A stretch of DNA of 32,000 nt from Nostoc punctiforme PCC 73102 (GTDB lineage: Bacteria; Cyanobacteriota; Cyanobacteriia; Cyanobacteriales; Nostocaceae), in assembly GCF_000020025.1 (NCBI RefSeq), contig NC_010628.1:900001-932000 (forward strand). The letters are read 5' to 3'. A program made the position numbers and the translations under genes. The notes beneath the pieces were generated by a model. That model was not told the origin of the DNA, did not search any database, and was given only the letters and a program-made list of their open reading frames with translations. Position 1 is the stretch's first letter. Every line of letters begins with the position of its first letter. Positions 3,217-24,587 of the stretch are shown here, piece by piece.

Positions 3217-4653
3217 TTGATCGGAGCTTCTATTTCTGAGAAATCTTTAGATAAACTCCTGGTAAAACTAAACCAGCAAAAACCTCGTGCGATCGGCTTG
3301 GATATTTATCGTGATTTTCCGGCTGAAGATAAAAATTTAATTAGTCGTCTCAAACAGACTCAAAAGTTGATTGGAATATGCAAGGGGAGTGATACAACAA
3401 ATATCCAAGGCATTAAACCACCGCCAGAAATCCCCATAGTCAACCTGGGATTCAATGACTTTGTTCGCGATCGTGATGCGGTTATACGTCGGTATCTTCT
3501 GTTTATGAACCCAGAAGTTACATCGTTATGTCCTGCTTCCTATGCGTTTAGTCTACAACTGACTTTCCTCTATCTCCAATCCTTTGAAATTCGACCCCAA
3601 TTCACTCGTGCAGGGAATTTTCAGCTAGGCAATACTGTTTTTGAAAACTTTTCTCCCCGTAGTAGCTATAATATCGATCCCAATGGCGGTCAAATCTTAC
3701 TTAACTATCGTTCATCAAAGTACATAGCCGAACAGGTAACGCTAACCCAATTTTTATCTAGTCCAGTAAACTCCAGTCCTGCCAAAGACCGGATTGTTCT
3801 AATTGGTTCGGTGGCAAAGGGGGATTTTCCAGATACCTGGGCTACGCCCTATGGATCTCCCTTGAACGAGCAAATGCCAGGAGTATTAGTACAAGCGCAA
3901 ATGGTTAGCCAAATACTCAGTACAGTGTTAGATAACCGACCTTTAATCAAAATCTTGCCTGAACTAATGGAATGGTTGTGGATCTTTGGCTGGTCAACGG
4001 TAGGAGCTAGTATTAGCTTAGGGTTATGGAGATTGCGTTTTACACAACTATCAACTCCCAGTATTTTAATAACAATGACTTGCCTTGCTGGTATCTGTTA
4101 TTTGGCTCTTATGCTAGGTTGGTGGTTACCTCTAATTCCTGCAATGGTAACGCTACTAAGCTCTATGATTCCTATGCCAGTAGTACCTAGCTATCCTTTA
4201 GATCAACTCGACTTTCAGCGTACTTTAGAGTTAATAATAGAAGCTTATGATGGAAATTTAGCTGATGCTCGCGTAGCTGTTGGATATCTTATCAACTCCA
4301 GTCCCAGGAAAAGACCTGCTATTCAAGGATTAATTAGTGTTGCGATGGATGCGCTTAATTCTTGTCAGACAATTGAAGGCATAGCTACCGTTGCCAATCA
4401 GTTAGCCTGGATTCCCTCACCATTACCAAAGGCTATTAACTCTGTACTTCCCCTATTTTTGCAAATTAGCCAAGGAGTACGAACTGCTTTGGATGTTACG
4501 CCAGTAGTCCGTCAGCGCGAATTGCTTAACGAGTCGATAAATGCCTTGCGCTTTTTGTCAGCAAGTTTAGCTTCAGAAAGCTTTAGCCGTGAAGCTGCGA
4601 CTTTCAGAAGTATTGCGTTAGACTGGATAATAATTCTAATATATTCAGACTAA
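3217..4653 (+). CDS. CHASE2 extracytoplasmic sensor domain + 3 TM helices + ~150-aa C-terminal helical region. This is the C-terminal part of the split gene; no convincing start codon or RBS of its own.
   Basis: KPRAIGLDIYRDF and the following ~230 aa fit CHASE2. TM segments are LMEWLWIFGWSTVGASISLGLW, ILITMTCLAGICYLALMLGWW and LPLIPAMVTLLSSMI. Same frame as 358-3204. Confidence 0.7.
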   Translation: MIGASISEKSLDKLLVKLNQQKPRAIGLDIYRDFPAEDKNLISRLKQTQKLIGICKGSDTTNIQGIKPPPEIPIVNLGFNDFVRDRDAVIRRYLLFMNPEVTSLCPASYAFSLQLTFLYLQSFEIRPQFTRAGNFQLGNTVFENFSPRSSYNIDPNGGQILLNYRSSKYIAEQVTLTQFLSSPVNSSPAKDRIVLIGSVAKGDFPDTWATPYGSPLNEQMPGVLVQAQMVSQILSTVLDNRPLIKILPELMEWLWIFGWSTVGASISLGLWRLRFTQLSTPSILITMTCLAGICYLALMLGWWLPLIPAMVTLLSSMIPMPVVPSYPLDQLDFQRTLELIIEAYDGNLADARVAVGYLINSSPRKRPAIQGLISVAMDALNSCQTIEGIATVANQLAWIPSPLPKAINSVLPLFLQISQGVRTALDVTPVVRQRELLNESINALRFLSASLASESFSREAATFRSIALDWIIILIYSD

Positions 4654-7355: not shown

Positions 7356-7424
7356 AAACTAGCTTTCCCTGTTTGTCTGTCGGCTGTCGCCTGATAGTAA
7401 CACGAGCAAAAATACCAGTCAAAC

Positions 7425-7449
7425 ATACCCGACTAAAAATGTCGGGTAT
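7425..7449 (-). promoter_or_regulatory. Hairpin in the presumed 5' leader of the thrC-like gene
   Basis: ATACCCGAC (7425-7433) pairs with GTCGGGTAT (7441-7449), with a 7-nt A/T loop. It lies ~70 nt upstream of the start codon at 7355. Function unknown. Confidence 0.25.
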
Positions 7450-8001
7450 TCTTAGTATTGGAAAAACTGATTTTTGTAAAATTTTTATGACCGTAATCGT
7501 AGTATCAAGTATTTACACTTACATTTATTTGTTTCAAAATTAGATAAAAACTTCAGTTATTCAGTTTTAACACTGAGTATTCATATAATTAAATTGCATA
7601 TTATCCATGAGTTATTTGCATTTTGCTCAATTAGCATCACTTTATTTAGTGATCCAGATCACTGAGGTGATTTTTTATTTCTTTATACCAATTACTCCAC
7701 ATGGTACTATGCATACATGGCAGCAAATATTCAAAAGTGCTTTTATATATAGATTGTGGTGTGTTTTACTTCCGTTTTAAACACTAAAATTGCTATGTGT
7801 GTCGCCAAAATAAAGTTAATTTTTCAGCCTTGATGCACTCATCCATCGCTAGAGAAGTTACTTATTTATACGGAAGTTTTTTTTTGGCATAAAAGCTACA
7901 TTGTTATTTACATCGAAGATTCAGCAGGACACAGTAGTAAGTTACCCATATTTACGATTGCTAACCTTGATAATCAACGGTAAGCGTAAAACATACAACA
8001 A

Positions 8002-8136
8002 GAGGCAATAGCTTTTCTGCCTATTGCCTCAATCTAGTTCTTCAGGAGTAGCCAATAAATTAACTCCTCATATATACATTGCCCAAAACCTTAAGGCTTT
8101 GGGCAAGTCTAGTCGGTAATTCTTTAAAGAATTGCC
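8002..8136 (+). promoter_or_regulatory. Four consecutive stem-loops or palindromes in the leader of the first cluster gene
   Basis: (1) GAGGCAATAG/CTATTGCCTC, 8002-8030, perfect 10 bp. (2) AGGAGT/ACTCCT, 8044-8068. (3) GCCCAAAACC/GGCTTTGGGC, 8081-8104, 9 of 10 bp with a TTAA loop. (4) GGTAATTCTTTAAAGAATTGCC palindrome, 8115-8136. Confidence 0.4.
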
Positions 8137-8195
8137 GAACTTTATCCTGTCTCAAAACCCAAGATACAAGTTCAGCAAATAAACAAACTACTTTT

Positions 8196-10685
8196 ATGGT
8201 AAACCGAAATAAATCTGTCAACAAGCAGCGCCAGCATTACCAATCTCTAGTAGCAACAGCATTGTTAACTGGTAGCTTTTTCCAATTTATTGCACCTGTA
8301 CTAGCTGACGGTACAGCTGGTGGTCAATCTATTAGTAACACAGCGACTGCTACCTACGAAGATCCCAACGCGCCAGGGACAACTATAAATGCCACCTCTA
8401 ATACTGTAACCGTCACTGTGGCAGAAGTTGCTGGGATCACCGTCACTGCGTCGGGTGTTACAGATAACAATGGTGGCGCTGTTGGAGTTAACGATTTACT
8501 AACTTACACCTACACCCTAACGAACGTAGGTAACGACCCCACCAAATTCCATATTCCCAACCAAGCAACGACAACCGGGCCTGGTACAGTTTCTGGTGTA
8601 CTTCCTGCTGATAAAAATGGGGTAACACCAGCTAGTGGCACACTGCAATACAGTACTGACGGTGGTGCAACTTGGACAAATGTAGCAGCAGGTGGTGTAG
8701 ATACAGCCTCAATTCCGGTTAGCGGTACTGTGTTGGTGCGTGTGCCAGTGACTGTACAAACTGGCGCTCAATCCGGTGACGTAATTAAAGTTACCCTTGG
8801 TAATACTCCTGGTGATGCCCAAAACCAACTCCGGAGTCCTGATGGTGGTGACGTTTATACTGTAGATAACGCTGATAACGCAGGTGGTGGAGAAGTTGCT
8901 GGCGCACCAGTTAACGGTACACGAGAATCTAGTATTACCCAGCAAATTCAAGTGGGTAACACTGTTAAAACCGTTGCTCTAGCCACAATACTCAAAACTC
9001 GAACAGCCTACAACGCTGGTGATGCTTCCGTACTCAATGATGACTTGCTGACTTATGGTTTAAGCTTGCGAGTTGAGAGCAATGACGTAACCAATCGGGG
9101 GCTAACACCCGCAGCTTTAGCTGGTACAAATATCAATGTAGATGGTAGTCTAGTTCCTCGCATCTTAGTTTCTGATGCACTTCCAGCATCCACAACTCTT
9201 AATGGGACTCCAACCGCTCCTTCAGGGTGGATAGTGGTTTATGCTGGCGAAGATCCTGCCACTACAACTGCCGATCAGTCTCTGTGGAAAACTGACAAAA
9301 CTCAAGTAACAGGCGGTATAGTCAAACGGGTTGGTTTTATTAACAATCCTAGCTCTATCTCTACAATTGCCACTGGCACAACTGTTACAGGCTTTACGGT
9401 GCAAGTAAAGACCACTGGAATCGCAGTAACAACACCGACAAATGTTAACAACATCGCTCAAGTGTTTGGTAAAACTGCTGGCGATCCAAATAGCCCCCTG
9501 CTCTTTGACGATTCAGGCGATCAAAACCCAGATAACATCAACCCCTCTACTGGAGCCTTTCCTACTACACCTGACATTGGTTATTATCCCACTACTCCCG
9601 GTAATGTTGACACAGGCAATAACAACCAAGGTGCTAATTCTGTTACAGGAAATGTCAACGTTTATACTGTTTCAGTCGCCCAGGCAAACTCAGTTTTAAA
9701 CGGGCCGAATAATGCACCGGATGCTACTGGCCCATCGGGTTTAACCAACGATGACTTCACTAACAAATCTTCCTTTGTTCCTCCCAACACACCGCCTGGT
9801 AGTACACTTGACCCGCAATCGGTTGGCTTCACTAATACAATTAAGAACAACGGCGCTAACCCTAACGACATCACAATAGTGCCAACCGCACCAGCAACAT
9901 TTACAGATTTGCCAAATAATACAAAGGTGACTGTTAGTTATAATAGTCAATCTGCTGTTTATACCTACAACAGTGCTACTGGTGTTTTTACCATAGCAAA
10001 CGGTAATACACCAATTAAAATCCCTGCTGTTCCTGCTGGTGGCATTGTTAATTATGGTGTAGAAGTTGACCTACCACCTGGTACGCAACTATCGACTGAT
10101 ATTGGTAAGGGCTTCCCAGTACCGATCACTGCTTTTATTGACACTGATAATAATGGTATACCGAATACTGCGGTTAATGGGGAAGCGTACAATATCTCCA
10201 TCGATCGCGTCTACACTGGCTTCTTAAAACTGTTGAAAATGTCACGAGTTCTACAAGGAAGTGGCCCAGCAGTGCAAGGGACTGATGGGACATTCAGTAT
10301 TACTCCGAAGAAGCCTGCACCAGGAAACATTATTGAGTACCAAATTCAATACACAAATATTTCTGATGCTCAATCTGGAACCGGTAACGTGATTTTGAAT
10401 GCTAACAAAGTTGTGATTACTGAAGATGGTACAGCAGGGGGCAACAACTGGGCGCTAGACAACGACAATAACACTCAAATTGATACTAGCAACATTGTTG
10501 GTTCAGCAAAGGATTCTGGGGCTTCAACTATCCAGTTCTTCAATGGTAATCCGGCTACTAACTCTAGTATCGATCAAACTGGAACCACGCTAAACAGTGA
10601 TGTCACAAAGTATGTAGATACTGCCACTGGACAGATTGCACCTGGTGTTCAAAGAACATTTACCTTCCAACGCAAGGTTAACTAG
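8196..10685 (+). CDS. Secreted multi-domain DUF11/TIGR01451-type repeat surface protein (829 aa from ATG 8196)
   Basis: Signal peptide MVNRNK...LLTGSFFQFIAPVLA|DG. N-terminal motif ISNTATATYEDPN...TSNTVTVTVAEVAGITV. DUF11-like cores LLTYTYTLTNVGNDP and PGNIIEYQIQYTNIS. T/N/G/S-rich composition. Confidence 0.8.
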   Translation: MVNRNKSVNKQRQHYQSLVATALLTGSFFQFIAPVLADGTAGGQSISNTATATYEDPNAPGTTINATSNTVTVTVAEVAGITVTASGVTDNNGGAVGVNDLLTYTYTLTNVGNDPTKFHIPNQATTTGPGTVSGVLPADKNGVTPASGTLQYSTDGGATWTNVAAGGVDTASIPVSGTVLVRVPVTVQTGAQSGDVIKVTLGNTPGDAQNQLRSPDGGDVYTVDNADNAGGGEVAGAPVNGTRESSITQQIQVGNTVKTVALATILKTRTAYNAGDASVLNDDLLTYGLSLRVESNDVTNRGLTPAALAGTNINVDGSLVPRILVSDALPASTTLNGTPTAPSGWIVVYAGEDPATTTADQSLWKTDKTQVTGGIVKRVGFINNPSSISTIATGTTVTGFTVQVKTTGIAVTTPTNVNNIAQVFGKTAGDPNSPLLFDDSGDQNPDNINPSTGAFPTTPDIGYYPTTPGNVDTGNNNQGANSVTGNVNVYTVSVAQANSVLNGPNNAPDATGPSGLTNDDFTNKSSFVPPNTPPGSTLDPQSVGFTNTIKNNGANPNDITIVPTAPATFTDLPNNTKVTVSYNSQSAVYTYNSATGVFTIANGNTPIKIPAVPAGGIVNYGVEVDLPPGTQLSTDIGKGFPVPITAFIDTDNNGIPNTAVNGEAYNISIDRVYTGFLKLLKMSRVLQGSGPAVQGTDGTFSITPKKPAPGNIIEYQIQYTNISDAQSGTGNVILNANKVVITEDGTAGGNNWALDNDNNTQIDTSNIVGSAKDSGASTIQFFNGNPATNSSIDQTGTTLNSDVTKYVDTATGQIAPGVQRTFTFQRKVN

Positions 10686-10697
10686 ATAGTTTGATTT

Positions 10698-10726
10698 CAC
10701 CCCTCTTTAATTTGCAAAGAGGGGTG
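10698..10726 (+). terminator. Strong hairpin 12 nt after the stop of the first cluster gene (terminator or attenuator)
   Basis: CACCCCTCTTT (10698-10708), loop AATTTGC, AAAGAGGGGTG (10716-10726): a perfect 11-bp stem. No clear U-tract follows. Confidence 0.5.
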
Positions 10727-10857
10727 TATAGCACATCTGTATTTGTAGCTGGTGCTTTAATCCTAAAGTGCCAACTACAAAATGATTGTTCTCCAGCGAA
10801 AACAGGGAAAGATAAATCAGCAATCGGCATTATGAAAGTTTTTTGAGGTTATTGATT

Positions 10858-11421
10858 ATGAAGCGTTTTTCTTTTGCAAGTTTAGGAGCGTTCGCACTTA
10901 TTGCTACAGTGCCATTTGTTAGTCAAGTGCCAGGAATCGCTTCTCTATGGCATTCTACCAGTGCTGTTGCCCAAAATGTCAAAACTCAAGGGCAAATACA
11001 ATTGCGCTTAGAAGCTGAGAAGCAAGTGATAGCACAGGATCAGCAGGGTAAGCAAAGTAAGACATGGCAACCTTTAAAAGGTCAAGCCGTGGTGCAACCA
11101 GGAGATGTGTTGCGATATACATTAAGTGGCGAAAATAAGAGCGATCGCCCCGTGAAGAATTTGATTCTCAATCAACCTATTCCTAAAGGAATGGTATACA
11201 TACTGAAATCTGCAATTGCCGCTAATGATACTAAAGTTACTTACAGCATTGATGGCGGACGCAGCTTTGTCGAAAATCCCACTGTTAAATTTACTCTTCC
11301 TGACGGGAAAGTGGAAACAAAACCAGCACCAGCAAATGTTTACACCCACATCCGTCTGCAAGTGTCATCAGTTCCAGCCAAGAAAACGGTTAAAGCTACT
11401 TATCAAGTCCAAGTGCGCTGA
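10858..11421 (+). CDS. Small secreted single-domain DUF11 protein (187 aa precursor)
   Basis: Signal peptide MKRFSFASLGAFALIATVPF. DUF11 core PGDVLRYTLSGENKSDRPVKNLILNQPIPKGMVYI. GAGG lies 8 nt upstream of ATG 10858. Confidence 0.75.
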   Translation: MKRFSFASLGAFALIATVPFVSQVPGIASLWHSTSAVAQNVKTQGQIQLRLEAEKQVIAQDQQGKQSKTWQPLKGQAVVQPGDVLRYTLSGENKSDRPVKNLILNQPIPKGMVYILKSAIAANDTKVTYSIDGGRSFVENPTVKFTLPDGKVETKPAPANVYTHIRLQVSSVPAKKTVKATYQVQVR

Positions 11422-11572
11422 TTCGTTATGCCTGATATCACCCGCCTGTAGAGACCTTTTTTTAAGGCAGTCAAGAGCGGAAAACAACCGTGCTTTATAA
11501 GGAGAGTCGGAGGGCATCTTCGATAGATAAACAAGTGCTTTTATTAACAAAAAAAGTGGCATTCCAGAGGAG

Positions 11573-13123
11573 ATGTGTTCAGTGAGCCATCCTCAAAAGC
11601 AAAAACAAATTACTTATAGGAGTAGCTGGTATCAAAGGTTAACAGCTACTGTTCTTCTGGGAAGTTTTTTGCAAACTACTATATCTATACCAGCGATCGC
11701 ACAACAGACTAACAATCTCGGTGCGTCTTTGCCATTAATAAATCAAGCTACTTATACTTATACAGACTCTGCTAATAATCAGAAATATGACGGAACTTCT
11801 AGTCAGCTTAATGTTACTCCTAGCCCATTATTCGATCCATTAGGGAGAATATTAGGTTGCGCTGGTACTATTTTGCCTGACTATACAGGTTTTTCAGTTG
11901 GCGTATACGAATCTAATCCTAGCGACCCAACGGGGACAGAATTAGGTGGCTTGCTTTCTTTGACTCGAACAGAGTTACCCGATATTCCTAATAACAACGT
12001 TCCTGGCGGTAAGTCGCCAAATACCGAGAATAGTAACCCCTACTTCGTTACTAATAACCCTGCGGGTGTCTACAATTTCCTACTCGATCCGAATAAGGGT
12101 CAAACCGATCCAGGTAGAACTTATATTTTTGTAGTTAATCCACCGCCAAATTCTATCTATAAGCAACGGCGGATCAAGATTGAAATCCTTGGTAGCACTG
12201 GCACACAAGGTAATAATATTGTGCGATATGTCGCTAGTTCTCTGGATGGCCAACCAATCAGCCTTACAGGTGAGACGAGGGTAGAGCAAACAGTTGTCTT
12301 AGTTCCGAATGCAGAAGTAGTAGGACTGGACTTATTAGCCTTTGAATTCAGTACAAATTTGTGCCAAGCCAATCAGTTGCAGATTGTCAAAACAGGCGAT
12401 CGCGCTACTGCTGAACCTGGGGATACGGTAATCTACCGCCTCTCAGTAAAAAATCTTGCTGATGCTGGTTTGAATAATATATTTGTCACCGACAATTTAC
12501 CTTTAGGATTCCAGTTTTTACCTAAATCTGTGCGCGGAGAGTTGGATGGCAAATCAGTTGCTATCACCTCAGAACGCAATGGAAACACAGTGACATTCCG
12601 CACAGACGTAACAATTCCTACGGAAAAAACTCTGAATATTGCTTACGCGGCTCAACTAACAGCCGATGCTGTGCGTGGTAACGGTCGCAATAGTGCGATC
12701 GTGAATGCCCAACGAGCTGATAACCGTTTTAGCACCAAGGATGGACCAGCAACGCACCAGTTAAAAATTCGTCCAGGAATCGTTTCTGATTGCGGCACGA
12801 TTATCGGTCGCGTGTTTATTGATAAAAACTTTGACGGTGAACAACAACCTGGTGAGCCTGGAGTCCCCAATGCAGTGATTTTTCTGGAGGACGGAAACCG
12901 AATCACCACAGATCCGAATGGTTTGTTCTCCTTAGCTAATGCCTTACCAGGAAGTCATACAGGCGTACTAGACCTCAGCAGTGTACCTGGTTATACCCTA
13001 GCTCCCAACCAAAAATTTCGTGAACGGAATAGCCAATCTCGCTTAGTACGTTTAGAACCTGGTGGCTTGGTACGTATGAATTTCGCTGTCACCCCCGCCT
13101 TCCAGGAGCCAGTCAAAAAATGA
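11573..13123 (+). CDS. Secreted protein with a DUF11 domain and an SdrD-B/Cna-B-like domain
   Basis: Its signal region YQRLTATVLLGSFLQTTISIPAIA is similar to that of the 8196 gene. N-terminal motif INQATYTYTDS...SSQLNVT. DUF11 core PGDTVIYRLSVKNLADAGLNNIFVTDNLPLGFQF. GRVFIDKNFDGEQQPGEPGVPNAVIFLEDGNRITTDPNGLFSL is SdrD-B-like. A GTG at 11582 is an alternative start. Confidence 0.75.
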   Translation: MCSVSHPQKQKQITYRSSWYQRLTATVLLGSFLQTTISIPAIAQQTNNLGASLPLINQATYTYTDSANNQKYDGTSSQLNVTPSPLFDPLGRILGCAGTILPDYTGFSVGVYESNPSDPTGTELGGLLSLTRTELPDIPNNNVPGGKSPNTENSNPYFVTNNPAGVYNFLLDPNKGQTDPGRTYIFVVNPPPNSIYKQRRIKIEILGSTGTQGNNIVRYVASSLDGQPISLTGETRVEQTVVLVPNAEVVGLDLLAFEFSTNLCQANQLQIVKTGDRATAEPGDTVIYRLSVKNLADAGLNNIFVTDNLPLGFQFLPKSVRGELDGKSVAITSERNGNTVTFRTDVTIPTEKTLNIAYAAQLTADAVRGNGRNSAIVNAQRADNRFSTKDGPATHQLKIRPGIVSDCGTIIGRVFIDKNFDGEQQPGEPGVPNAVIFLEDGNRITTDPNGLFSLANALPGSHTGVLDLSSVPGYTLAPNQKFRERNSQSRLVRLEPGGLVRMNFAVTPAFQEPVKK

Positions 13124-16100
13124 AACCCAGACTGCACCATACAAATATTTTCAACCTAAAGATGATGGGGGTGATGCCAATAGCTCTCAGCCTCGTTTTG
13201 TATCCTGCCATAGTTAAGGCAGAACCTACAAATGAAAATCTTTTTTCCCCCGAATCGCCTTCGCAATCAGACAAGGGTGTCGAAGATCCTGACTTTTCAA
13301 GGGATCTAGAAAACCTCTCTTTTAAAACGGGAGAGGCTTTGAATTCTCCCCCGTCTTTACAAGCTACGCTGTACACACAAGTTATCGAATTACCCCACCC
13401 TAACCCTCGCCTTGGAAAGGGGAGGGAACTAGATTTTCTTTCCACCCTTTCCAAGGGGGGATTAAGGGGGGTAAAACCCGGATCTCAAAGTAACTCCGAT
13501 TTGCGTGTACACGGTAGGTTTTTACAAGAGAAGGGGGTTAGAGGTTTGGTTTTTCCAGATGATGTGAAAAATCAGGATGAGGATCAAGCAGATCGGAATA
13601 AAGTTGCTGAAAAAAGTATGGATTCAAGTTCTCCCCATCTTTTGGGAAGTTCTGACAAGCAACTTCTACCTCTTGAACTTTCTTCAACTAATACTTCAAT
13701 TCCAGATGTTCAACCAAGTGAAACGGAAATACAAGGATTTCAACCAGCAACTTCTGTTGATTTACCCAGAGACTTAGGTAAACTAGCAGTCATCAAGAAT
13801 GAAGGACGCAAAGACACAAAAATAGAGCTTCAAACTTCTCCAAGGGAAATACAAGGATTTCAACCAGCGTTTTCTGCTCAATTACCTAGAGGGTTACGTA
13901 AAATAGCTGGAGTAATTGAGGAAAATCAGAAAATTCCCCCCACTTCCCCCATCTCCACAGGAATAAAATTCCTGATGCCAACGGCTAACAACATTGTGGA
14001 TGTTCCTGCTACCACAGTGATTGTGCAATTTCCCGTTGGAAGCACAGTAGAATTACGGTCTAATGGCGTATTAGTCGATCCTTCTTCAATTGGACGAACA
14101 GAAACCGATGCCAGTACTAACTTAGTAACGCAGACATGGTATGGTGTTTCGTTAAAAGAAGGTAATAACACCATCTCTGCACAAGTAGTAGGAGGGACAG
14201 AACCTCCTGTAACGGTTCAAGTCGTAGTCCGGGGAGCGCCACAGAAACTAACCTTAGAAACTGTTGAGTCTCGTATCCCGGCGGATGGACGTTCTACAGC
14301 TACAATCAGGGGTCAACTGATCGATGCAAGTGGTAATCGCTCTAATCGTGATGCTGTTATCACTTTGATACCTACTGCTGGGGAGTTGGTTGGGAAAGAC
14401 TTCAAACCCGATGAACCCGGATTTCAAGTAGAGGCGAAAGCGGGGCAATTTACGGCTAAGTTGCGATCGCAACTCAAAGCCCAAACTGTCACAATTCGCG
14501 CCATCGCTAATAATTTAGAAGCCTTTACTCAATTACAATTTGAAACATCACTGCGTCCGAGTTTGGTTACTGGCGTAATAGATTTACGTTTGGGCGCTAG
14601 AGGTACAGATTATTATGGTAGTTTCCGTGATTTTCTCCCGCCTGACAAAGATAACAGAACGCAATTAGATTTCCATTCAGCGATATTTGCCACTGGTGCG
14701 ATCGGAGAATGGTTGTTTACAGGCGCATACAACAGTTCTCGTAACCTCAATGAAGATTGCAACTGCGATAATCGCCTGTTTAGAACTTACCAATCTAGCG
14801 AGCAAAATTATCCTGTCTATGGCGATAGCTCGCAAGTTGATGTTGTTGCTCCTTCCATTGACAGCCTATATGTGCGTCTTGAGCGTTCAACTGGTATCCC
14901 CGGAGCCGATCCTGATTATGCCATGTGGGGTGACTACAATACAGAAGAATTTGCGCGGCGATCGCAGCAATTTACTTCTATCACCCGTCAACTCCACGGT
15001 TTTAAGGCTAACTACAACTTAGGGAATCTACAAATTACAGGTTTGTATGGCAACCACTTAGAAGCTTTCCAACGAGATACCATTGCTCCCGATGGCACTA
15101 GCGGTTATTACTTCCTCTCTCGCAGAATACTACAACCAGGTAGTGAAAATGTCTTTATTGAGTTAGAAGAACTCAATCGTCCTGGGACTGTACTAGAACG
15201 GAAACAGCTTAACCGCGGTCCAGACTATGAAATCGACTACGATCGCGGTACCTTATTGTTCCGCGAACCTATCCTTCGTACCGATATCGATCAAACCGGA
15301 CAAGTATTGGTACGCCGGATTGTTGTTAGCTATCAATATGACAGCGAAGATTCTGATAGCAATATCTATGCTGGTCGTTTGCAATATAATCTTTCCCGCA
15401 AACTTAACCAGGAAAGTTGGATAGGAGCAACTTATGTCCAAGAAAATCAGGGAGTACGTGACTTTCAACTCTACGGTGCAGATGCGCTGATTTCTTTGGG
15501 TAATCAAGGTAGATTAATTGCAGAATATGCCCATTCCACTAATGATTCTGATGTTGTAGGAAAGGTTAGTGGTGAAGCGTATCGGTTGGAAGCTGAGGGA
15601 CAAATTACTGACGGGATTCAAGGTCGTGCCTATTATCGCTTTGCCGATACAGGTTTTGCTAATAATGCCACTATCAGCTTTGTCCCAGGACAAACCCGTT
15701 ATGGAGCGCAGGTTACAGCTAAACTCAGTTCAACCACTAACGTCAGGGCTCAGTACGACCACGAAGACAATTTTGGCATTGCTCCCCAACCCTTAGATAC
15801 CTTTGAAGAACTGTTTGCACCCCGTTATGAGTCGATACCTGGTAGTAAAGTTGATAATTCCTTAACGACAATTTCCGCCGGGATTCAACAACGCTTGGGT
15901 AGTGCCATTATTGATGTGGATTGGATTCATCGTCATCGAGAAGACCGCATTCCCGACAGCGCCCTCAGTGGTACTTCGGATCAATTGCGATCGCGTTTTA
16001 CAGTTCCTATTGCTAAAAATCTGACTTTCCAAGCCCAAAATGAAATCAGTTTATCTTCCCAAAAAGATAGTGTTTACCCTGACCGTACCATCTTCGGGCT

Positions 16101-17274
16101 AAATTGGGCAGCAATTCCTGGTGTAAATATCAGTCTGGCCCAACAGTTTTACACTAGTGGTCAATATTCGGGTAATTCCATCACCAGCTTGAGTGTCAAC
16201 GGTGAACACAAACTCGGATCGGATACTACCTTGACTGGTCGTTACTCAATTTTAGGTGGTGCGAATGAAATGACTACCCAAGGGGCGATAGGTCTAAATA
16301 ACCGTTGGACTATTGCTTCGGGATTGCGGCTGAATGTTGCTTACGAACACGTATTTGGCAACTTCTTCGGACGGACTGCGGCAGGTCAACAATATGCCCA
16401 ACCCTTCGCCTTTGGTCAATCAGCATCTGCGATCGGATTTGATGGTGGCGATAGCTACAGTGTGGGTCTAGAATACAGTGATAATCCGCAGTTTCAAGCC
16501 AGTGCCCGTTACGAACATCGTTCTTCTTCTGGTGGTAGCAATACAGTAATTACCGCAGGTGCTGCGGGTAAAATTTCTCCGGCTCTCACAGCATTGGTAC
16601 GTTATCAACAAGCTGGTTCATCCAATCAAAAGCTTTCGGGATTGGGGGATACAGCTACTTTGAAGTTGGGACTAGCTTATCGCGACCCCAATAGCGATAA
16701 ATTTAATGCCTTATTGCGTTATGAATATCGCAAAAATCCATCAACTATCCCTGACACCATCCTCTTAGGTAGTGGTACAGGTTCCGAAGACCATACTTTT
16801 GCTTTGGAAGCTATTTATGCTCCTAACTGGCAATGGGAATTCTATGGTAAATATGCCTTGCGTAACAGCACTTCTTACATAGCCAGCGATTTAGCTGGTA
16901 CAAATACGGTAAATTTGGGACAATTACGCGCTACCTATCGTTTGGGATATAGCTGGGATTTAGTGGGTGAGGCTCGTGTAATTAGTCAGTCTAGTTACAG
17001 CGAAACAGGCTTTATTGTAGAAACAGGCTATTATCTCACGCCTAACCTGCGTGTTTCTGCTGGATATGTATTTGGTAAAGTTGATGACCGGGATTTCTCA
17101 GGAACACGTTCCGCAGGTGGTGCATATTTGGGTGTCAGCGTCAAACTCAATGAATTATTTGATGGCTTTGGACAGCAAAAACCAGTGCCACGTCAGCCAC
17201 AGGAATCTGCAATGAAAACTTTGGTAGGTAAACTCAAGGCCGCAACGAAGGGGATGCAAAAGCGTGAAATATAA
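13120..17274 (+). CDS. 1384-aa predicted outer-membrane protein: signal peptide, ~250-aa low-complexity linker, two Ig-like domains (the second Big_1/invasin-like), and an ~880-aa beta-barrel-like region
   Basis: The ATG overlaps the upstream stop (ATGA at 13120-13123), with AGGAG at 13104-13108. Signal MMGVMPIALSLVLYPAIVKA. IPADGRSTATIRGQLIDASGNRSNRDAVITL is Big_1-like. From about aa 480 there are alternating-hydrophobic strands with Y/G/N/D turns, ending ...AGYVFGKVDDRDF...GAYLGVSVKLNELF. Confidence 0.8.
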   Translation: MKPRLHHTNIFNLKMMGVMPIALSLVLYPAIVKAEPTNENLFSPESPSQSDKGVEDPDFSRDLENLSFKTGEALNSPPSLQATLYTQVIELPHPNPRLGKGRELDFLSTLSKGGLRGVKPGSQSNSDLRVHGRFLQEKGVRGLVFPDDVKNQDEDQADRNKVAEKSMDSSSPHLLGSSDKQLLPLELSSTNTSIPDVQPSETEIQGFQPATSVDLPRDLGKLAVIKNEGRKDTKIELQTSPREIQGFQPAFSAQLPRGLRKIAGVIEENQKIPPTSPISTGIKFLMPTANNIVDVPATTVIVQFPVGSTVELRSNGVLVDPSSIGRTETDASTNLVTQTWYGVSLKEGNNTISAQVVGGTEPPVTVQVVVRGAPQKLTLETVESRIPADGRSTATIRGQLIDASGNRSNRDAVITLIPTAGELVGKDFKPDEPGFQVEAKAGQFTAKLRSQLKAQTVTIRAIANNLEAFTQLQFETSLRPSLVTGVIDLRLGARGTDYYGSFRDFLPPDKDNRTQLDFHSAIFATGAIGEWLFTGAYNSSRNLNEDCNCDNRLFRTYQSSEQNYPVYGDSSQVDVVAPSIDSLYVRLERSTGIPGADPDYAMWGDYNTEEFARRSQQFTSITRQLHGFKANYNLGNLQITGLYGNHLEAFQRDTIAPDGTSGYYFLSRRILQPGSENVFIELEELNRPGTVLERKQLNRGPDYEIDYDRGTLLFREPILRTDIDQTGQVLVRRIVVSYQYDSEDSDSNIYAGRLQYNLSRKLNQESWIGATYVQENQGVRDFQLYGADALISLGNQGRLIAEYAHSTNDSDVVGKVSGEAYRLEAEGQITDGIQGRAYYRFADTGFANNATISFVPGQTRYGAQVTAKLSSTTNVRAQYDHEDNFGIAPQPLDTFEELFAPRYESIPGSKVDNSLTTISAGIQQRLGSAIIDVDWIHRHREDRIPDSALSGTSDQLRSRFTVPIAKNLTFQAQNEISLSSQKDSVYPDRTIFGLNWAAIPGVNISLAQQFYTSGQYSGNSITSLSVNGEHKLGSDTTLTGRYSILGGANEMTTQGAIGLNNRWTIASGLRLNVAYEHVFGNFFGRTAAGQQYAQPFAFGQSASAIGFDGGDSYSVGLEYSDNPQFQASARYEHRSSSGGSNTVITAGAAGKISPALTALVRYQQAGSSNQKLSGLGDTATLKLGLAYRDPNSDKFNALLRYEYRKNPSTIPDTILLGSGTGSEDHTFALEAIYAPNWQWEFYGKYALRNSTSYIASDLAGTNTVNLGQLRATYRLGYSWDLVGEARVISQSSYSETGFIVETGYYLTPNLRVSAGYVFGKVDDRDFSGTRSAGGAYLGVSVKLNELFDGFGQQKPVPRQPQESAMKTLVGKLKAATKGMQKREI
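13370..13511. mobile_element. MITE-like G/C-tract palindromic element embedded in-frame in the linker of the 1384-aa gene
   Basis: Terminal inverted repeats TGTACACACAA..ATCG (13370-13387) and CGATTTGCGTGTACA (13497-13511). The core CCACCCTTTCCAAGGGGGGATTAAGGGGGG...GGATCTC resembles, in reverse orientation, the core of the 153-289 element. It translates to LPHPNPRLGKGRELDFLSTLSKGGLRGVKPG. Confidence 0.5.
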
Positions 17275-17294
17275 AACGATTATTTAAAAACAAT

Positions 17295-17321
17295 ACCATT
17301 GTAAATCTGAATACAAATGGT
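17295..17321 (+). terminator. Weak A/T-rich hairpin after the 1384-aa gene
   Basis: ACCATTGTA (17295-17303) pairs with TACAAATGGT (17312-17321), with one bulge. Confidence 0.25.
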
Positions 17322-17444
17322 AGATTATCTACGATTTTGGGAAAGCTAAAGACTAAAGATTAGTTTGAGGAGAATCAGTCCTCATTGATGATTATGGTTC
17401 AGTTAATCAGCATTTTTTAAAGGTTATTTTATGGTGATTTACTA

Positions 17445-19874
17445 ATGAAGAATTTATGGCAAAATATTAATATTTTTAGCTGGGGACTTCTCGGTGCGAC
17501 ATTAGTACTTCAACCTACAGTAGCGCAAGCTCAATATATCCAGCGATCGTTCCTAAACCCCAGCTTTGAGCAACCTGTATTTGGTAATGTTGGTCAACAA
17601 TGTTACGTTCAAGTATCGCCAGGTATTATCCCTGGTTGGGAAACGACTCATGGCTCAGTCAAGGCGGGAACAGGTACTTGTAGTGGTTATGTATCTCCAG
17701 GAAATGTACCACTGATTGAGATTTGGAAAACAGGATTTAATGGTGCTAGCACAGCAACGATACCAACTAGTGCAGGAAATCAATTTGCTGAGTTAAATGC
17801 AGAGCAAAATTCTGAGTTGTATCAGAATATATGCCTAATTAAAGATGAGACAATTACCTTCTCTCTTTTACATCGTGGGCGGTCAAGCTCATCTGTGGCT
17901 GATGTGGCCAATTTTTTAATTGGACTAAATACCAATCCAACATCAACTATTTTTGGCAGATTCTCAACAACTAGCAATGGAACAGTTACGGCACAACCAG
18001 TAGCACAGAATGGTGCAACTATTCCTACTGTAACTAACAATAATGCAGGAAATGGCTGGGTAAGATACACTGGTACAGTGCCTTACACTGGTGCTAGTGG
18101 GAATCAACCTGTAGGATTTGCGGCTGTTTCCACGGCGGGCGGAAACAATACTATAGGCAACTTCCTTGATGAAGTCCAATTTGCTGGTAAACCGGTGCTT
18201 GAGTTCACGGCGAGTTCAGGTGGTGCAGCAGAATCGGAAACTAACCCTACTACTAACCCACCTAAACTTAGGATTGTTGGTTTAGTGCCAACTGGTGGGA
18301 TCAGTGTTTCAATTTCAGTTTCTGGTACAGCCGTTTTGGGTACAGACTACAACACAATATCAAACACATCCACTTTTAATATCAATATTCCTGCGGGCAA
18401 CTACGACGGCAGTGATGCTACTAGTGTCTTTACCATTCCTTTTACTGTTATTAACAATAACGTTCCTCAAGGTGTGAGGACAATCGTATTCACTATACAA
18501 CCTTCATCTAGTTTTTTCGCCAGTTCAACAACAACTTGTGGCGGTTCCCCAACGATCGCTTCTAGCTACACAATTTATGATGATGATTTCCTCAGTGGTA
18601 AGGTTTGGGATGATGCCGATAATAGCGCTAACAATACTTTTACTAATATCAATACTGGCTCAGAAACTGGCACTAATGCTGGTGGATTGTTAAATGCTAT
18701 TCTTGTAGATTCTAATAATAAAGTATTAAAAACAATACCTGTTGCAGCAGATGGTACTTACACCTTTCTCGATGTTCCCCTGAATCAAAACAACGTTAAA
18801 ATTATCTTGAGTACAACTGCTGGCACTGTAGGTAATACTGCCCCTGCACCATCCCTCCCTTCTAACTGGATCAACACTAGCCCACTAACGACAGCTACTT
18901 TTAATACTGGTACAAACATCTCTAGTAAGGACTTTGGAATTGAGCAGTTACCTGATACTAACAATGTCAATGGATCGACAACAACAAATCCAGGGGGAAC
19001 CAATACTGTACAAGTACCAACATTATCAGGCACTGACCCGGAAGATGGGAACCTTAGTTCTGGCAACAGTTTCAAGATTGTTAGTCTGCCAAGTAATGGG
19101 ACACTGTACTACAACGGTGTAGCTGTGACAGCGAATCAAATTATTACTAATTACGATTCGACCAAATTAACAGTAGATCCGAATATAGATGGCGCTATAA
19201 CCATCACTTTCACTGTAGCCGCAATAGACAAAGCAGGCAAAGAAGATCCCACACCTGCTACGGTAACTATGCCATTAACTGCGTCATCATCTGGCAAACC
19301 TCAGTTAATTTTAGTTAAACGCATCACCCGAATTAACAGCCAGAATTTAACCAACATTGTAGATGGTCGCAGCGACGTTCCTTCTAATGCTGCTAACTAC
19401 GTAGCATCTCCACGTGACACTGATGATGATAGTAGTAACACTTGGCCCACTAATTACTTGCGCGGATTGATTAACGCTGGGATAGTCAAACCAGGAGATG
19501 AGTTAGAGTACACTATCTACTTCCTTTCCAATGGTCTAGGTAATGCAACTAATGTTCAAATCTGTGATTTAGTTCCTGTCAATAGTACTTTTATTCCTAC
19601 TGCCTTTAGTAGTATGACTCCTAATGATGGTGGTTTAGCAGGAGCAGATCAAGGTATTGCTCTTGCGCTTAGTTCTAGCACTCCTACGGTTTATCTGACT
19701 AATGCCCAAGATGCAGATCGCGGACGTTTTTATACTGCTAACGAGACAGTCCCATCTTACTGCGGCGCTAACATCAATGGGGCAGTGGTGGTGAATATTA
19801 CACGGAGTCCAGATTTACCCAATCTCGTCAAAGATTTTTACGGTTTTGTCCGTTTTCGCGCTAAGGTGAAATAG
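17445..19874 (+). CDS. Secreted multi-domain surface protein: lectin/jelly-roll-like N-domain, Calx-beta, SdrD-B-like, Ig/cadherin-like and C-terminal DUF11
   Basis: Signal MKNLWQNINIFSWGLLGATLVLQPTVAQA. FLNPSFEQP...PGWET...IEIWKTGF...GNQFAELNAEQNSELYQ. Calx-beta motif SGTAVLGTDY. GKVWDDADNS...DGTYTFLDVP. DUF11 core PGDELEYTIYFLSNGLGNATNVQICDLVP. Confidence 0.8.
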   Translation: MKNLWQNINIFSWGLLGATLVLQPTVAQAQYIQRSFLNPSFEQPVFGNVGQQCYVQVSPGIIPGWETTHGSVKAGTGTCSGYVSPGNVPLIEIWKTGFNGASTATIPTSAGNQFAELNAEQNSELYQNICLIKDETITFSLLHRGRSSSSVADVANFLIGLNTNPTSTIFGRFSTTSNGTVTAQPVAQNGATIPTVTNNNAGNGWVRYTGTVPYTGASGNQPVGFAAVSTAGGNNTIGNFLDEVQFAGKPVLEFTASSGGAAESETNPTTNPPKLRIVGLVPTGGISVSISVSGTAVLGTDYNTISNTSTFNINIPAGNYDGSDATSVFTIPFTVINNNVPQGVRTIVFTIQPSSSFFASSTTTCGGSPTIASSYTIYDDDFLSGKVWDDADNSANNTFTNINTGSETGTNAGGLLNAILVDSNNKVLKTIPVAADGTYTFLDVPLNQNNVKIILSTTAGTVGNTAPAPSLPSNWINTSPLTTATFNTGTNISSKDFGIEQLPDTNNVNGSTTTNPGGTNTVQVPTLSGTDPEDGNLSSGNSFKIVSLPSNGTLYYNGVAVTANQIITNYDSTKLTVDPNIDGAITITFTVAAIDKAGKEDPTPATVTMPLTASSSGKPQLILVKRITRINSQNLTNIVDGRSDVPSNAANYVASPRDTDDDSSNTWPTNYLRGLINAGIVKPGDELEYTIYFLSNGLGNATNVQICDLVPVNSTFIPTAFSSMTPNDGGLAGADQGIALALSSSTPTVYLTNAQDADRGRFYTANETVPSYCGANINGAVVVNITRSPDLPNLVKDFYGFVRFRAKVK

Positions 19875-23123: not shown

Positions 23124-24126
23124 AGAGTTGTCGGGAAATAAAAGATAAGTGAGGCAATGCTGGTCTTGTAATTGGGATTCTCTTAAGCAGCCATCAAGTA
23201 GAAGTTCCATAATCCTGCTGCGGTCAGCATCAAATGGTCATCAAAGTTTTCAATCCGATTACGATAAATGACACTGGCGGCGTTGTAGCGCTTCACACCA
23301 GCAAAGGCATTTTCGCAAACTACACGGGATTGACTCAATTGACGATTCTCCGTTTTTTGAAGGTCACTTAACTTGCCCCCTTTGGGCTTTTTGTGAGGAA
23401 GATGGAGATTGTCATACTGCTTCTGTAATCCCTGAAAGCCCGAGTCTACTTCAATCGGAATTTCATCAGGCACACTACCTGCAATGTCATCTTCGTCATG
23501 AAAACGTTTGTCATGCAGTTTGCCTTCTCGTGCTTTGCTTAAGATCAAGACCCGTTTGGTTTCATCAACTGCCGCCAAGTGTTTACGCGTATGACGTTTC
23601 TTTTTACCGGAGTAATTCTGTTGTTGTTGTTCTCTTTCTTGAGGTCGCGCAATTGGGCGTTCTGTCCCATCAATCATCACTCGTTGCACTCCTGGAAAGC
23701 GTGACAAAAATGCTTCAATGCTTTCGAGATGGCGTTCCGGCAGCGCCATCTTCTGTCCCAAAGCCGCTTCTAATATTGGCTGCAATCGATGCATCCACTC
23801 ATGTGCCTGGGAGCGATGCATATCAAAGAGCAGTCCCGCCACATCAAAGGTCGGATAACATTTGAAATAGAAAAGGATGAAAAACAATTTGTCTTGGGCT
23901 GTAAGTAAGCGGGCTTTGCGTCCTCCACCCAGGCCACGTTGACGAGGCTTGGCCTGTTGAGTATCTAGGTACATCGTGGTAAACGTGGGCAAAAGGGCAT
24001 CAAATGCTTTCCGGTTCAACCCAGTTAATGCCCTCAACAGTCGGTCTTGCTTCAGCGCACCTTCAATATTCAGCATCATTCTTCCCTACCACTGCTGTCT
24101 ATTCTCTCTTATTTCCCGACAAGTCT
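23124..24126 (-). mobile_element. IS element (~1.0 kb), IS5-family / Harbinger-like (DDE_Tnp_4-type transposase)
   Basis: Inverted repeats AGAGTTGTCGGGAAATAA (23124-) and the reverse complement of ...TTATTTCCCGACAAGTCT (-24126), 17 of 18 bp matching. Flanking direct repeat AAT (23121-23123 and 24127-24129). Boundaries are ambiguous by +/-2 nt because AATAG is shared on both sides. Confidence 0.8.
23183..24079 (-). CDS. DDE transposase (HTH_Tnp_4 + DDE_Tnp_4-like)
   Basis: 298 aa with motifs MIDGTERPI, YSGKKKRHTRK, VDSGFQGL, PHKKPKGGKL and NRQLSQSRVVCENAFAGVKRY. Confidence 0.9.
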   Translation of the reverse strand: MMLNIEGALKQDRLLRALTGLNRKAFDALLPTFTTMYLDTQQAKPRQRGLGGGRKARLLTAQDKLFFILFYFKCYPTFDVAGLLFDMHRSQAHEWMHRLQPILEAALGQKMALPERHLESIEAFLSRFPGVQRVMIDGTERPIARPQEREQQQQNYSGKKKRHTRKHLAAVDETKRVLILSKAREGKLHDKRFHDEDDIAGSVPDEIPIEVDSGFQGLQKQYDNLHLPHKKPKGGKLSDLQKTENRQLSQSRVVCENAFAGVKRYNAASVIYRNRIENFDDHLMLTAAGLWNFYLMAA

Positions 24127-24587
24127 AATAGATATCGTCAAATCTACAGCACCTGTTTTGAAAAAGAACGGTCAGCAAATCACAACTCGGATGTATGAAA
24201 TCATGTTTCAAAATCATCCAGAAGTCAAAGAACAATTTAGTATGGCGGCTCAAGCAGATGGTTCTCAGCCTGCAAGATTAGCAACAGCAGTTTATAGTTA
24301 TGCTAACCAAATTGATAATTTGCCTGCTTTAAAGTCGATGGTAGAGAAGATTGCCCATCGTCATGTGCAGACTCATGTTACACCAGAGCAATATCCTATT
24401 GTCGGAGAAAGTTTACTGCAAGCCATGAAAGATGTTTTGGGAGAAGCTGCTACAGAAGAAGTGATGGCAGCTTGGACTGAAGCTTATCAGGCATTATCTG
24501 AAGTGTTTATTCACAGAGAACATGATATATATGTGGGTGAAGATAAAAAAGCACAGCTTTTGCATTCTTAAGGACAAGACTTAGTGT

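Follow-up and report, generated by a model that had tools for sequence, protein, structure and literature searches.

A candidate surface-fiber system with a split CLIPPER-type domain and a giant β-barrel protein in Nostoc punctiforme

RESULTS AND DISCUSSION

Organization of the gene cluster

The DNA analyzed here is a 32,000-nucleotide stretch of the Nostoc punctiforme PCC 73102 genome (contig NC_010628.1, positions 900,001 to 932,000), which is called the window below and is numbered from its first letter. Positions 8196–19874 of the window hold five co-directional genes, all on the + strand and termed g1 through g5, whose products are considered here as parts of a candidate surface-fiber system. 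These are g1 (8196–10685; 829 amino acids), g2 (10858–11421; 187 amino acids), g3 (11573–13123; 516 amino acids), g4 (13120–17274; 1384 amino acids), and g5 (17445–19874; 809 amino acids). The successive intergenic gaps are 172, 151, −4, and 170 nt, with the negative value denoting an ATGA overlap between the g3 stop codon and the g4 start codon. A noncoding leader of 840 nt (7356–8195, + strand) comes after a divergent PALP (threonine-synthase-like) gene and precedes g1, and a convergent gene for a MiaB-like protein (UPF0004, Radical_SAM, and TRAM domains) lies downstream. An earlier reading of this DNA made without database searches (the original prediction) had described the same layout, and its coordinates proved to be exact. 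It had also assigned Sec-type signals to all five products, each of which begins with a hydrophobic segment that is compatible with a Sec signal as judged by a heuristic only. The window contains neither a tRNA nor an Rfam family. The nearest match to g4 is from Nostoc sp. FACHB-133, with 97–98% identity.

Three Nostoc loci share the leader with 88% identity, but they come from strains that are too close for selection to be judged. It carries a conserved hairpin of 11 bp (8113–8138, + strand) located ∼60 nt 5′ of the g1 start codon. Duplicated ATTTGCAT-type boxes occur in the leader at ∼7585–7630. The ATG at position 8196 is supported as the start of g1 because an upstream extension beginning with TTG is closed in one of the other loci (L036).

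Two strong stem–loops (10698–10726 and 10742–10781, + strand; folding z-score −4.5) directly follow the g1 stop codon. A strong stem–loop is found at this position in all six cyanobacterial loci examined, including the one in the window (the others are L001 at 7700–7740, L003 at 7716–7746, L033 at 7527–7552, L035, and L036), and its position is kept even though its sequence differs. These hairpins were not flagged by a simple terminator scan because they have no U-tract. It is possible that the element stabilizes or attenuates the mRNA and thereby sets the ratio of g1 to the downstream products. Its conservation is consistent with a differential abundance of the product of the first gene.

Domain composition of the subunit proteins

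DUF11 was renamed CLIPPER in 2025 and denotes a CnaA-like fold with a Lys–Asp–Asn intramolecular isopeptide bond. DUF7925, DUF7927, DUF7619, and DUF7507 are sister families of CLIPPER. The original prediction had placed DUF11/TIGR01451-type cores in four of the five products. This is true for three of them, since the TIGR01451 cutoff of 24 bits is reached by g2 (26.4 bits), g3 (51.0 bits), and g5 (30.1 bits). Protein g1 does not match TIGR01451 and instead carries DUF7925, a CnaA-like isopeptide domain (216.8 bits, 2.7e-64, Pfam). All four proteins therefore have an above-cutoff match to PF01345/TIGR01451 or to a sister family, by which they were assigned to the CLIPPER/DUF11-type (CnaA-like) class.

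Protein g1 (8196–10685, + strand) consists of a signal peptide, a short N-terminal hairpin, internal CnaA-type domains (DUF7925), and a truncated C-terminal domain. Its ortholog in Anabaena (Q8YS00/all3292) is the reference for DUF7925 and has a predicted K/D/N isopeptide bond (PMC12617251). In an AlphaFold2 (AF2) model of mature g1, the internal domains are confidently predicted. Foldseek matches g1 to CnaA-type adhesins and pilins of Gram-positive bacteria (PrgB, antigen I/II, CNA, EbpB, PilA, and SpaD) and to the CLIPPER structure 9IFR, with a template modeling (TM) score of 0.67 on the target.

Protein g2 (10858–11421, + strand) is a single truncated CLIPPER-like domain that ends in ...KATYQVQVR. 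Protein g3 (11573–13123, + strand) carries a complete CLIPPER domain (amino acids 269–375), which matches PF01345 with 44.3 bits (cutoff 24.6; 2.5e-11) and shows, on reading of the sequence, K, D, and N at the motifs where the triad would be expected. It also matches TIGR04226, the RrgB isopeptide fimbrial D2 model, with 30.1 bits. An SdrD_B-like region at amino acids 413–486 of g3 scores below the Pfam cutoff (25 versus 29.7 bits), and the SdrD-B-like module of the original prediction was thus not confirmed. Its Calx-beta modules were not confirmed either, with no match obtained anywhere at a threshold as loose as E ≤ 10. Pfam lends no support to Calx-beta or to further modules in the N-terminal regions of g5 and g1, and the large N-terminal region of g5 matches no family. 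The C-terminal domain of g5 (amino acids 614–809; 19284–19871, + strand) ends in ...FVRFRAKVK.

A CLIPPER-type domain split between polypeptides

In both g1 and g3, the signal peptide is directly followed by an orphan β-hairpin that has no preceding domain body. In g1 this hairpin spans amino acids 38–75 (DGTAGGQSISNTATATYEDPNAPGTTINATSNTVTVTV; 8307–8420, + strand), carries the invariant Asn48, and is nearly invariant across more than 30 orthologs. The corresponding hairpin of g3 spans amino acids 45–84 (11705–11824, + strand). Their common motif, I-x-N-x-A...[YF]-x-D...S-N-x-V-x-V, is what the final two strands of a CLIPPER repeat have as their consensus, and the hairpin represents the last ∼35 positions of a CLIPPER domain. 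The resemblance between g1 and g3 in the signal region and the mature N terminus had been noted in the original prediction, and both elements are kept in every aligned ortholog, including those from other phyla.

A complementary feature is found at the other end of g1, g2, and g5. Each of these proteins has a C-terminal CLIPPER-like domain that stops immediately before the missing last hairpin; in g1 this domain comprises amino acids 672–829 (10209–10682, + strand) and ends in ...RTFTFQRKVN, ahead of the expected final hairpin. The three amphipathic C-terminal strands had been recognized earlier, and they turn out to be conserved as protein ends: The end points (...RTFTFQRKVN, ...KATYQVQVR, and ...FVRFRAKVK) are retained from cyanobacteria to Marinimicrobia-type metagenome-assembled genomes. 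The sequences suggest that the N-terminal motifs of g1 and g3 and the C-terminal motifs of g1, g2, and g5 are two halves of one split domain. We refer below to the hairpins as donors and to the truncated domains as acceptors.

Chimeric sequences were scored against domain profiles. Mature g2 alone scores 19.7 bits with DUF7927 and 16.6 bits with DUF11. When the g1 hairpin is appended, the scores rise to 33.6 and 25.1 bits, respectively, which are both above the Pfam cutoffs, and a second aligned stretch crosses the junction and extends to profile position 127 of 132. The g3 hairpin yields 24.0 and 21.5 bits. Control constructs yield 22.4 and 19.7 bits with a reversed hairpin, 22.5 and 17.7 bits with a shuffled hairpin, and 19.0 and 17.6 bits with the hairpin placed before g2. 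Addition of the g1 hairpin to the C-terminal domains of g5 and g1 produces junction-spanning matches to DUF7619 (92–128 of 133) and DUF7507 (51–100 of 105); the DUF7619 match of g5 scores 25.3 bits.

Similar results were obtained with a non-cyanobacterial locus (L015). The C terminus of its shaft-like protein, the counterpart of g1, ends on its own at position 84 of 114 in DUF11 and 94 of 132 in DUF7927, and appending the N-terminal hairpin of the same protein carries the alignment, as a single stretch, to positions 99 of 114 and 122 of 132. The tip-like protein of this locus is extended by the hairpin from 12–99 (21.8 bits) to 12–130 (33.1 bits) of the 133 positions of DUF7619. In two phyla, chimera tests that included controls thus bear out hairpin complementation, at the level of profiles only. 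Alignments of chimeric with complete CLIPPER domains by hhalign, with the domain of g3 as the complete example, have the expected register, in which the last strand of the acceptor falls on the penultimate element and the donor I-x-N-x-A falls on R-N-S-A. Sequence searches of the PDB with the chimera profile and with a canonical non-cyanobacterial chimera returned nothing useful.

In the AF2 monomer of g1, the N-terminal hairpin has predicted local distance difference test (pLDDT) values of 36–45 and most of the C-terminal domain is below 50, yet these are the most conserved segments of the protein. Such low values are consistent with parts that fold only when paired, although they are not proof of this.

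The distribution of ends bears on the identity of the major subunit, for which both the 187-amino-acid protein and the product of the first gene had been suggested. Protein g2 has only an acceptor end and hence is not a polymerizing major subunit. Protein g1 remains as the candidate for the shaft because it is the sole product with both donor and acceptor ends and because a conserved stem–loop follows its gene.

Possible covalent linkage at the junction

In the terminal domains, the Asn of the isopeptide triad sits on the hairpin of another polypeptide. Positions were read from the near-ungapped reference coordinates in PMC12617251, by which the donor Asn (residue 11 of the hairpin) falls at about position 106 of DUF7927 and about position 112 of DUF7619, the tabulated positions of the isopeptide Asn. 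The acceptor retains the Lys of strand A, which is Lys681 in g1, and that of non-cyanobacterial loci retains the catalytic Asp as well. For example, the shaft domain of L015 has K57 at the Lys position and D92 at the catalytic Asp position. In an alignment of chimeras from 22 cyanobacterial sequences (A4), K10 and E72 hardly vary, and N169 of the donor does not vary at all. On this pattern of residues, an intermolecular isopeptide bond is generally plausible and is uncertain for N. punctiforme, and the junction may lock covalently without a sortase.

The giant barrel protein g4

Protein g4 (13120–17274, + strand) consists of a signal peptide, a disordered region of ∼250 amino acids, two immunoglobulin (Ig)-like domains (amino acids 285–475), a barrel, and a C-terminal tail. 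The huge barrel anticipated in the original prediction is recovered by AF2, which was run on residues 285–1384 with a 35-sequence alignment and gave a pLDDT of 78.7. The barrel spans amino acids ∼482–1344 (14563–17151, + strand) and has ∼38 predicted strands. A barrel of this strand number should have a lumen of ∼5–6 nm, as estimated from barrel geometry, which should be wide enough for folded CLIPPER domains. A tail of ∼40 amino acids with a predicted helix (amino acids 1364–1380) follows the last strand.

After about the seventh strand, the barrel is interrupted by a β-sandwich insert of ∼75 amino acids (amino acids 649–724; 15064–15291, + strand), which is a candidate plug or gate. DSSP assigns seven short strands to the insert (residues 365–440 of the modeled fragment). 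It contains the densest run of invariant columns in the family alignment (A1) and has no Pfam match. The most conserved stretch of the barrel family in the same alignment is YPVYGDSS (amino acids 564–571; 14809–14832, + strand), which is invariant or nearly so and is located in a low-pLDDT loop.

The disordered N-terminal region contains a duplicated unit of ∼40 amino acids (…EIQGFQPA.S..LPR.L.K.A…; amino acids 203–282; 13726–13965). The length of this region varies greatly, and total ortholog lengths range from ∼1070 to ∼2360 amino acids in the loci analyzed.

Searches with Pfam and NCBIfam models find no match in g4 to TonB-dependent receptors, ushers, LptD, Omp85/POTRA, autotransporters, or OmpA. 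There is a marginal partial match to Porin_4, and there are subthreshold matches to Big_1/Invasin_D3. The profile searches indicate that g4 is homologous neither to ushers nor to LptD, TonB-dependent receptors, or classical porins. Homology to LptD, a TonB-dependent receptor, or a porin would have run counter to the role proposed for it originally. Neither the single sequence nor the family profile finds a solved relative of the barrel in the PDB, where only the Ig tandem matches, to C-terminal domains of GH2 proteins and to invasin. The top Foldseek matches in the PDB are SlpA (30 strands), SprA (36 strands), and MtrB; TonB-dependent transporters, LptD, and FimD come next. None of the TM scores is above 0.28, which signifies generic resemblance (∼0.2 for SlpA structures 8ae1, 8agd, and 7zgx, 0.10–0.18 for SprA, and 0.14/0.26 for FimD).

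The Anabaena ortholog of g4 is All3289 (1289 amino acids), which appears in the literature searched only as a mis-assigned “OmpA-like” protein. SprA is still termed the largest known barrel in a 2026 preprint, and predicted barrels of at least 38–40 strands have been mentioned without a function. Many homologs of g4 are named “TonB-dependent receptor” by NCBI/UniRef despite having no match to models of TonB-dependent transporters, and this name looks like a propagated mis-annotation.

Conservation and linkage of the five genes

Orthologs are found in unchanged order in Trichormus variabilis and Chlorogloeopsis fritschii. An exhaustive profile search finds 2072 cluster representatives of the barrel family, 680 of which have E ≤ 1e-30. 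A genome scan for the family motif YP[IVL][YF]GD[STA]S yields 317 species representatives. These come from many cyanobacterial orders, including Gloeobacteraceae and Pseudanabaena, and from at least eight non-cyanobacterial diderm lineages (Armatimonadota, Latescibacterota, Gemmatimonadota, Poribacteria, Neomarinimicrobiota, Lentisphaeria, Aerophobetes, and Deferrimicrobiaceae).

Gene linkage was counted in 84 distinct loci, with the counts for g3 and g4 limited to loci that have sufficient upstream sequence. The barrel gene has a g3-like gene directly upstream, overlapping it, or fused to it in 45 of 46 cyanobacterial and 22 of 24 non-cyanobacterial loci. Both g1 and g2 are present in 33 of 44 cyanobacterial loci, with the remainder forming a second subtype that consists of g4 and a short g3. 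Of the non-cyanobacterial loci, 18 of 22 have a g2-like gene. Genes like g5 are variable (19 of 55 loci), being of different size or absent. The same set of roles (a large and a small acceptor-only protein, a donor-plus-acceptor protein, a donor-only protein, and a barrel) recurs in ∼16 non-cyanobacterial loci. In Neomarinimicrobiota, Latescibacterota, Gemmatimonadota, and Lentisphaeria, the order is tip, small subunit, shaft, anchor, and barrel.

In distant relatives of ∼2000–2500 amino acids, DUF11/DUF7507/DUF7927/SdrD_B modules are fused N-terminally to Invasin_D3-like Ig domains and the barrel. These natural fusions of CLIPPER/SdrD_B modules with the Ig-barrel module tie g3 to g4. The five genes co-occur across genomes, as the original prediction required, and this supports the conclusion that they form a functional unit.

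In the second cyanobacterial subtype, a short g3-like gene (∼311 amino acids, with a donor-like N terminus) is located immediately 5′ of the barrel gene, and no g1 or g2 is found upstream (L034, L037, L038, L044, L047, L048, L051, L052, L055, L057, and L079). Hosts of this subtype include Coleofasciculus, Spirulina, Lusitaniella, and Symplocastrum. In Symplocastrum, both subtypes are present on one contig (L051 and L062).

A model for fiber assembly

The computational analyses demonstrate that the genes are linked, that the split domains are complementary, which fold class the subunits belong to, and that known machinery is absent. The best explanation, and the one that we regard as probable, is that the cluster encodes a hairpin-complemented heteropolymeric surface fiber together with its outer-membrane anchor and export pore. 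According to this model, all five products would be exported by Sec. The subunits, built of CnaA/CnaB-type domains (CLIPPER/DUF11, DUF7925, and SdrD_B-like), would be arranged as a bead-on-a-string fiber in which one CLIPPER-type domain per junction is divided between two polypeptides. An acceptor domain that lacks its last β-hairpin would be completed in trans by the N-terminal hairpin of the next subunit, which would be exposed upon cleavage of the signal peptide. We call this principle donor-hairpin complementation by analogy with the donor-strand complementation of chaperone-usher pili.

Protein g1, with both donor and acceptor, would polymerize head to tail to form the shaft, and it is probably made in excess because stem–loops follow its stop codon. 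Protein g5, with an acceptor only and a large variable N-terminal region, would be the tip adhesin, whereas g2, with an acceptor only and one domain, could serve as a cap, an adaptor, or a tip-proximal subunit. Protein g3, with a donor only, would terminate the fiber and remain bound to g4 as an anchor. The two genes overlap by ATGA in N. punctiforme and are fused in distant relatives, and the overlap is taken to indicate translational coupling. Protein g4 would reside in the outer membrane with its two Ig-like domains presumably in the periplasm, and the β-sandwich insert may gate the lumen. The fiber would be assembled at the barrel, passed through it, and held in it by g3. The original prediction had cast g4 as a translocon or usher, and transport by this protein is something that we infer.

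A bolder version of this model, which seems possible to us and is offered tentatively, is that the cluster represents a new class of diderm pilus in Cyanobacteria and several mostly uncultured phyla. Such pili, with subunits like Gram-positive pilins, would combine polymerization by split-CLIPPER hairpins, a spontaneous and sortase-free Lys–Asn lock between subunits in the manner of a natural SpyTag/SpyCatcher, and extrusion through, and anchoring in, the largest single-chain barrel yet seen (∼38 strands).

Several points weigh against the fiber model. The whole case is computational, and we infer the extracellular location of the fiber, which counts against the model in particular, as well as its transit via g4, gating by the insert, the order of assembly, and the covalent bond. 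The hhalign scores of the chimeras give no gain over acceptor-only, reversed, and shuffled controls. No periplasmic chaperone is evident, which leaves the survival of uncomplemented acceptor domains unexplained. The canonical position of the catalytic Asp is Ala in g1 and Gln in g2, with E72/D73 located seven to eight residues later, and a covalent lock is therefore doubtful in this organism. The strand count of the barrel rests on DSSP only, which assigns ∼39 long strands, and is best given as 36–40. Finally, a distant fused homolog of metagenomic origin (P0190; 2488 amino acids) has three SLH domains and a FlgD-type Ig domain between its CLIPPER/SdrD_B and Ig-barrel modules. This arrangement implies a periplasmic location and cell-wall binding for the segment, and it fits a static tether as well as the base of a fiber.

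Alternative explanations

The alternative that survives best, although we consider it unlikely, is that the complex is a static envelope tether or surface-layer anchor. Protein g4 would then be a structural outer-membrane protein like SlpA/OmpM that connects the outer membrane with the cell wall. Bound to it, the CLIPPER proteins would make up a short stalk or a complex for attachment of the sheath instead of an exported, polymerizing fiber. The 30-strand SlpA complexes (8ae1, 8agd, and 7zgx) are indeed the top Foldseek matches of g4, but their TM scores of only ∼0.2 are generic to large barrels. Likewise, the three SLH domains of P0190 are located just N-terminal to its Ig-barrel module, whereas g4 of the window has no match to SLH, OmpA, or coiled-coil models. 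The long and presumably periplasmic N-terminal region of g4 would suit a tether, and All3289 was discussed earlier as an outer-membrane anchor of a large soluble domain. However, the presence of donor and acceptor on g1, together with acceptor-only and donor-only proteins, suits a linear polymer and not a tether, and a ∼38-strand barrel with a conserved internal insert exceeds the needs of an anchor.

It is quite unlikely that the cluster encodes a split, giant autotransporter-like adhesin. In that scenario g3 would be the passenger and g4 its private translocator, with g1, g2, and g5 as independent adhesins that share the pore without any complementation. The natural g3–g4 fusions, the translational coupling suggested by the ATGA overlap, and the Big_1/Invasin_D3-like Ig domains adjoining the barrel, as in intimin and invasin, are all in keeping with such an arrangement. 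Yet no autotransporter, POTRA, or intimin-barrel model matches g4, and type V barrels have 12–16 strands. Moreover, this explanation does not account for why g1, g2, and g5 end exactly one hairpin short, or for why g1 and g3 start with a hairpin in every phylum.

A role for g4 as a TonB-dependent receptor, whether in nutrient uptake or in Ton-powered protein release as with Myxococcus Oar, would agree with the NCBI/UniRef label of many homologs, with genes for ExbB, ExbD, and a TonB_C protein 8–11 kb downstream in the window, and with a reported precedent for protein secretion that depends on a TonB-dependent transporter (PMC6434023), but it is highly improbable and was rejected on model searches: Plug (PF07715) and TonB_dep_Rec (PF00593) do not match at E ≤ 10, nor does any NCBIfam model; the whole-family profile retrieves no TonB-dependent transporter from the PDB; ∼38 strands are predicted rather than 22; and the Ton genes lie beyond seven unrelated genes, including an insertion sequence, and are absent near the cluster in Trichormus and Chlorogloeopsis.

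Comparison with known fiber and secretion systems

In Fim and Pap pili, the tip subunit is acceptor only and the base subunit is donor only. The fiber model for g1 through g5 resembles these chaperone-usher systems (with ushers FimD and PapC) in several ways. The model shares with them an incomplete Ig-type fold that is made whole by the next subunit's N-terminal extension, an acceptor-only tip adhesin and a donor-only terminator, and a gated outer-membrane barrel with an early internal β-sandwich insert and Ig-like periplasmic domains. In both, the gene for the major subunit comes first and is followed by a stem–loop. However, there is no homology between the two systems, and no Usher (PF00577), PapD, or fimbrial model matches here. 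Usher does not match g4 even at E ≤ 10, and FimD is only a generic Foldseek match. The donor proposed here is a two-strand hairpin of ∼38 amino acids rather than a single strand, the subunits are multidomain CnaA/CnaB proteins of 500–830 amino acids, the barrel has ∼38 strands rather than 24, and the cluster has no gene for a periplasmic chaperone. The original prediction had likewise reported no PapD-like chaperone, sortase, POTRA, or type I, II, or IX secretion system domain, and none was found in the 21 window open reading frames (ORFs) scanned, which include no match to PapD_N or PapD_C.

The subunits belong to the same fold class as those of the sortase-assembled pili of Gram-positive bacteria (RrgB, SpaA/SpaD, EbpB, and PilA), namely CnaA/CnaB domains with intramolecular isopeptide triads. 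This likeness is supported by the TIGR04226 match of g3 and by the Foldseek matches of g1. The tip–shaft–base architecture is also the same, and an amide link between Lys and Asn of neighboring subunits is possible in both. In contrast to the hosts of sortase pili, N. punctiforme is a diderm. The C termini (...FQRKVN, ...VQVR, ...EPVKK, and ...AKVK) lack an LPXTG sorting signal, and the scan of the window ORFs revealed no sortase domain. A covalent link, if there is one, would be formed autocatalytically in the reconstituted domain and not by transpeptidation.

Donor-strand complementation with intermolecular isopeptide bonds has been described for the archaeal thread filaments of Sulfolobus (PMC9715654). 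Those filaments involve no outer membrane or barrel, and their subunits are unrelated. The split domain can also be likened to SpyTag/SpyCatcher, an engineered split isopeptide domain that reconstitutes and locks covalently. In that case a CnaB domain was split artificially, whereas the split proposed here is apparently natural, is of the CnaA (CLIPPER) type, and has a bond that is only possible. CLIPPER/DUF11 fibrillar adhesins carry intramolecular bonds in single-chain proteins, and they share the domain family, whereas no split domain, operon, or barrel partner is described for them (PMC12617251).

The top structural neighbors of g4 are two very large single-chain outer-membrane barrels, SprA of the type IX system (36 strands) and SlpA of Deinococcus (30 strands), of which SprA passes folded proteins. 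However, neither is related to g4 in sequence, the TM scores do not exceed 0.28, and g4 has no SLH domain or coiled coil. If the count of ∼38 strands holds, g4 would exceed SprA in size. With regard to type IX secretion, g4 has no sequence match to SprA/Sov, no other domain of this system was found in the window ORFs scanned, and models for its cargo C-terminal domains did not turn up in Pfam scans of g1 through g5. For type V secretion, no translocator-barrel models match, and the only related signals are the Big_1/Invasin_D3-like Ig domains below cutoff. No SLH match is found in g4; among its homologs, SLH is present in one distant fused protein only.

Three further candidates from the literature were rejected. 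In Microcystis, the pilin of the cyanobacterial tubular (CT/MrpC) pilus is an unrelated protein of 12 kDa, and the gene cluster for that pilus is a different one. Haloarchaeal Tat-fimbriae matched the search only through the term “DUF1102.” Litorilinea and Aureispira have grappling-hook DUF11 filaments, but each of these is one giant protein and not a polymer of subunits. In the literature searched, outside of which many subscription papers fall, there is no account of the operon, the split domain, or a role for the barrel. This agrees with the earlier statement that the gene set does not correspond to a described pathway.

Significance

If the fiber model is correct, then the cluster would define a new diderm pathway for fiber assembly beside the chaperone-usher, type IV, type V, and curli pathways, built of parts that are thought to be typical of Gram-positive pili. 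It would provide a function for a barrel family with at least 317 species representatives and a role for All3288–All3292 of the model cyanobacterium Anabaena PCC 7120. Questions of adhesion, of attachment to sheath or biofilm, and of Nostoc symbiosis would become testable by gene knockout. A naturally split and possibly self-ligating CnaA domain would be of interest to protein engineers, and a single-chain barrel of ∼38 strands would be both a challenging substrate for the β-barrel assembly machinery (BAM) and a new size record.

Other genes in the window

The Ton system downstream of the cluster comprises genes for ExbD (27963–28385, − strand), ExbB (28348–29001, − strand), and a TonB_C protein of 480 amino acids (29344–30786, + strand). 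Between it and the cluster, a gene for an insertion sequence-type DDE_Tnp_4 transposase (23183–24079, − strand) overlaps a globin gene on the opposite strand (24047–24571, + strand), and a gene for a NACHT NTPase (24931–27045, − strand) lies downstream of the globin gene. A CHASE2 domain is divided between two adjacent ORFs, with profile positions 5–45 at the end of an nSTAND1/TPR protein (358–3204) and the match resuming from position 51 at the start of the next ORF (3217–4653). A frameshift, a pseudogene, or a gene that is truly split could each account for this division of CHASE2.

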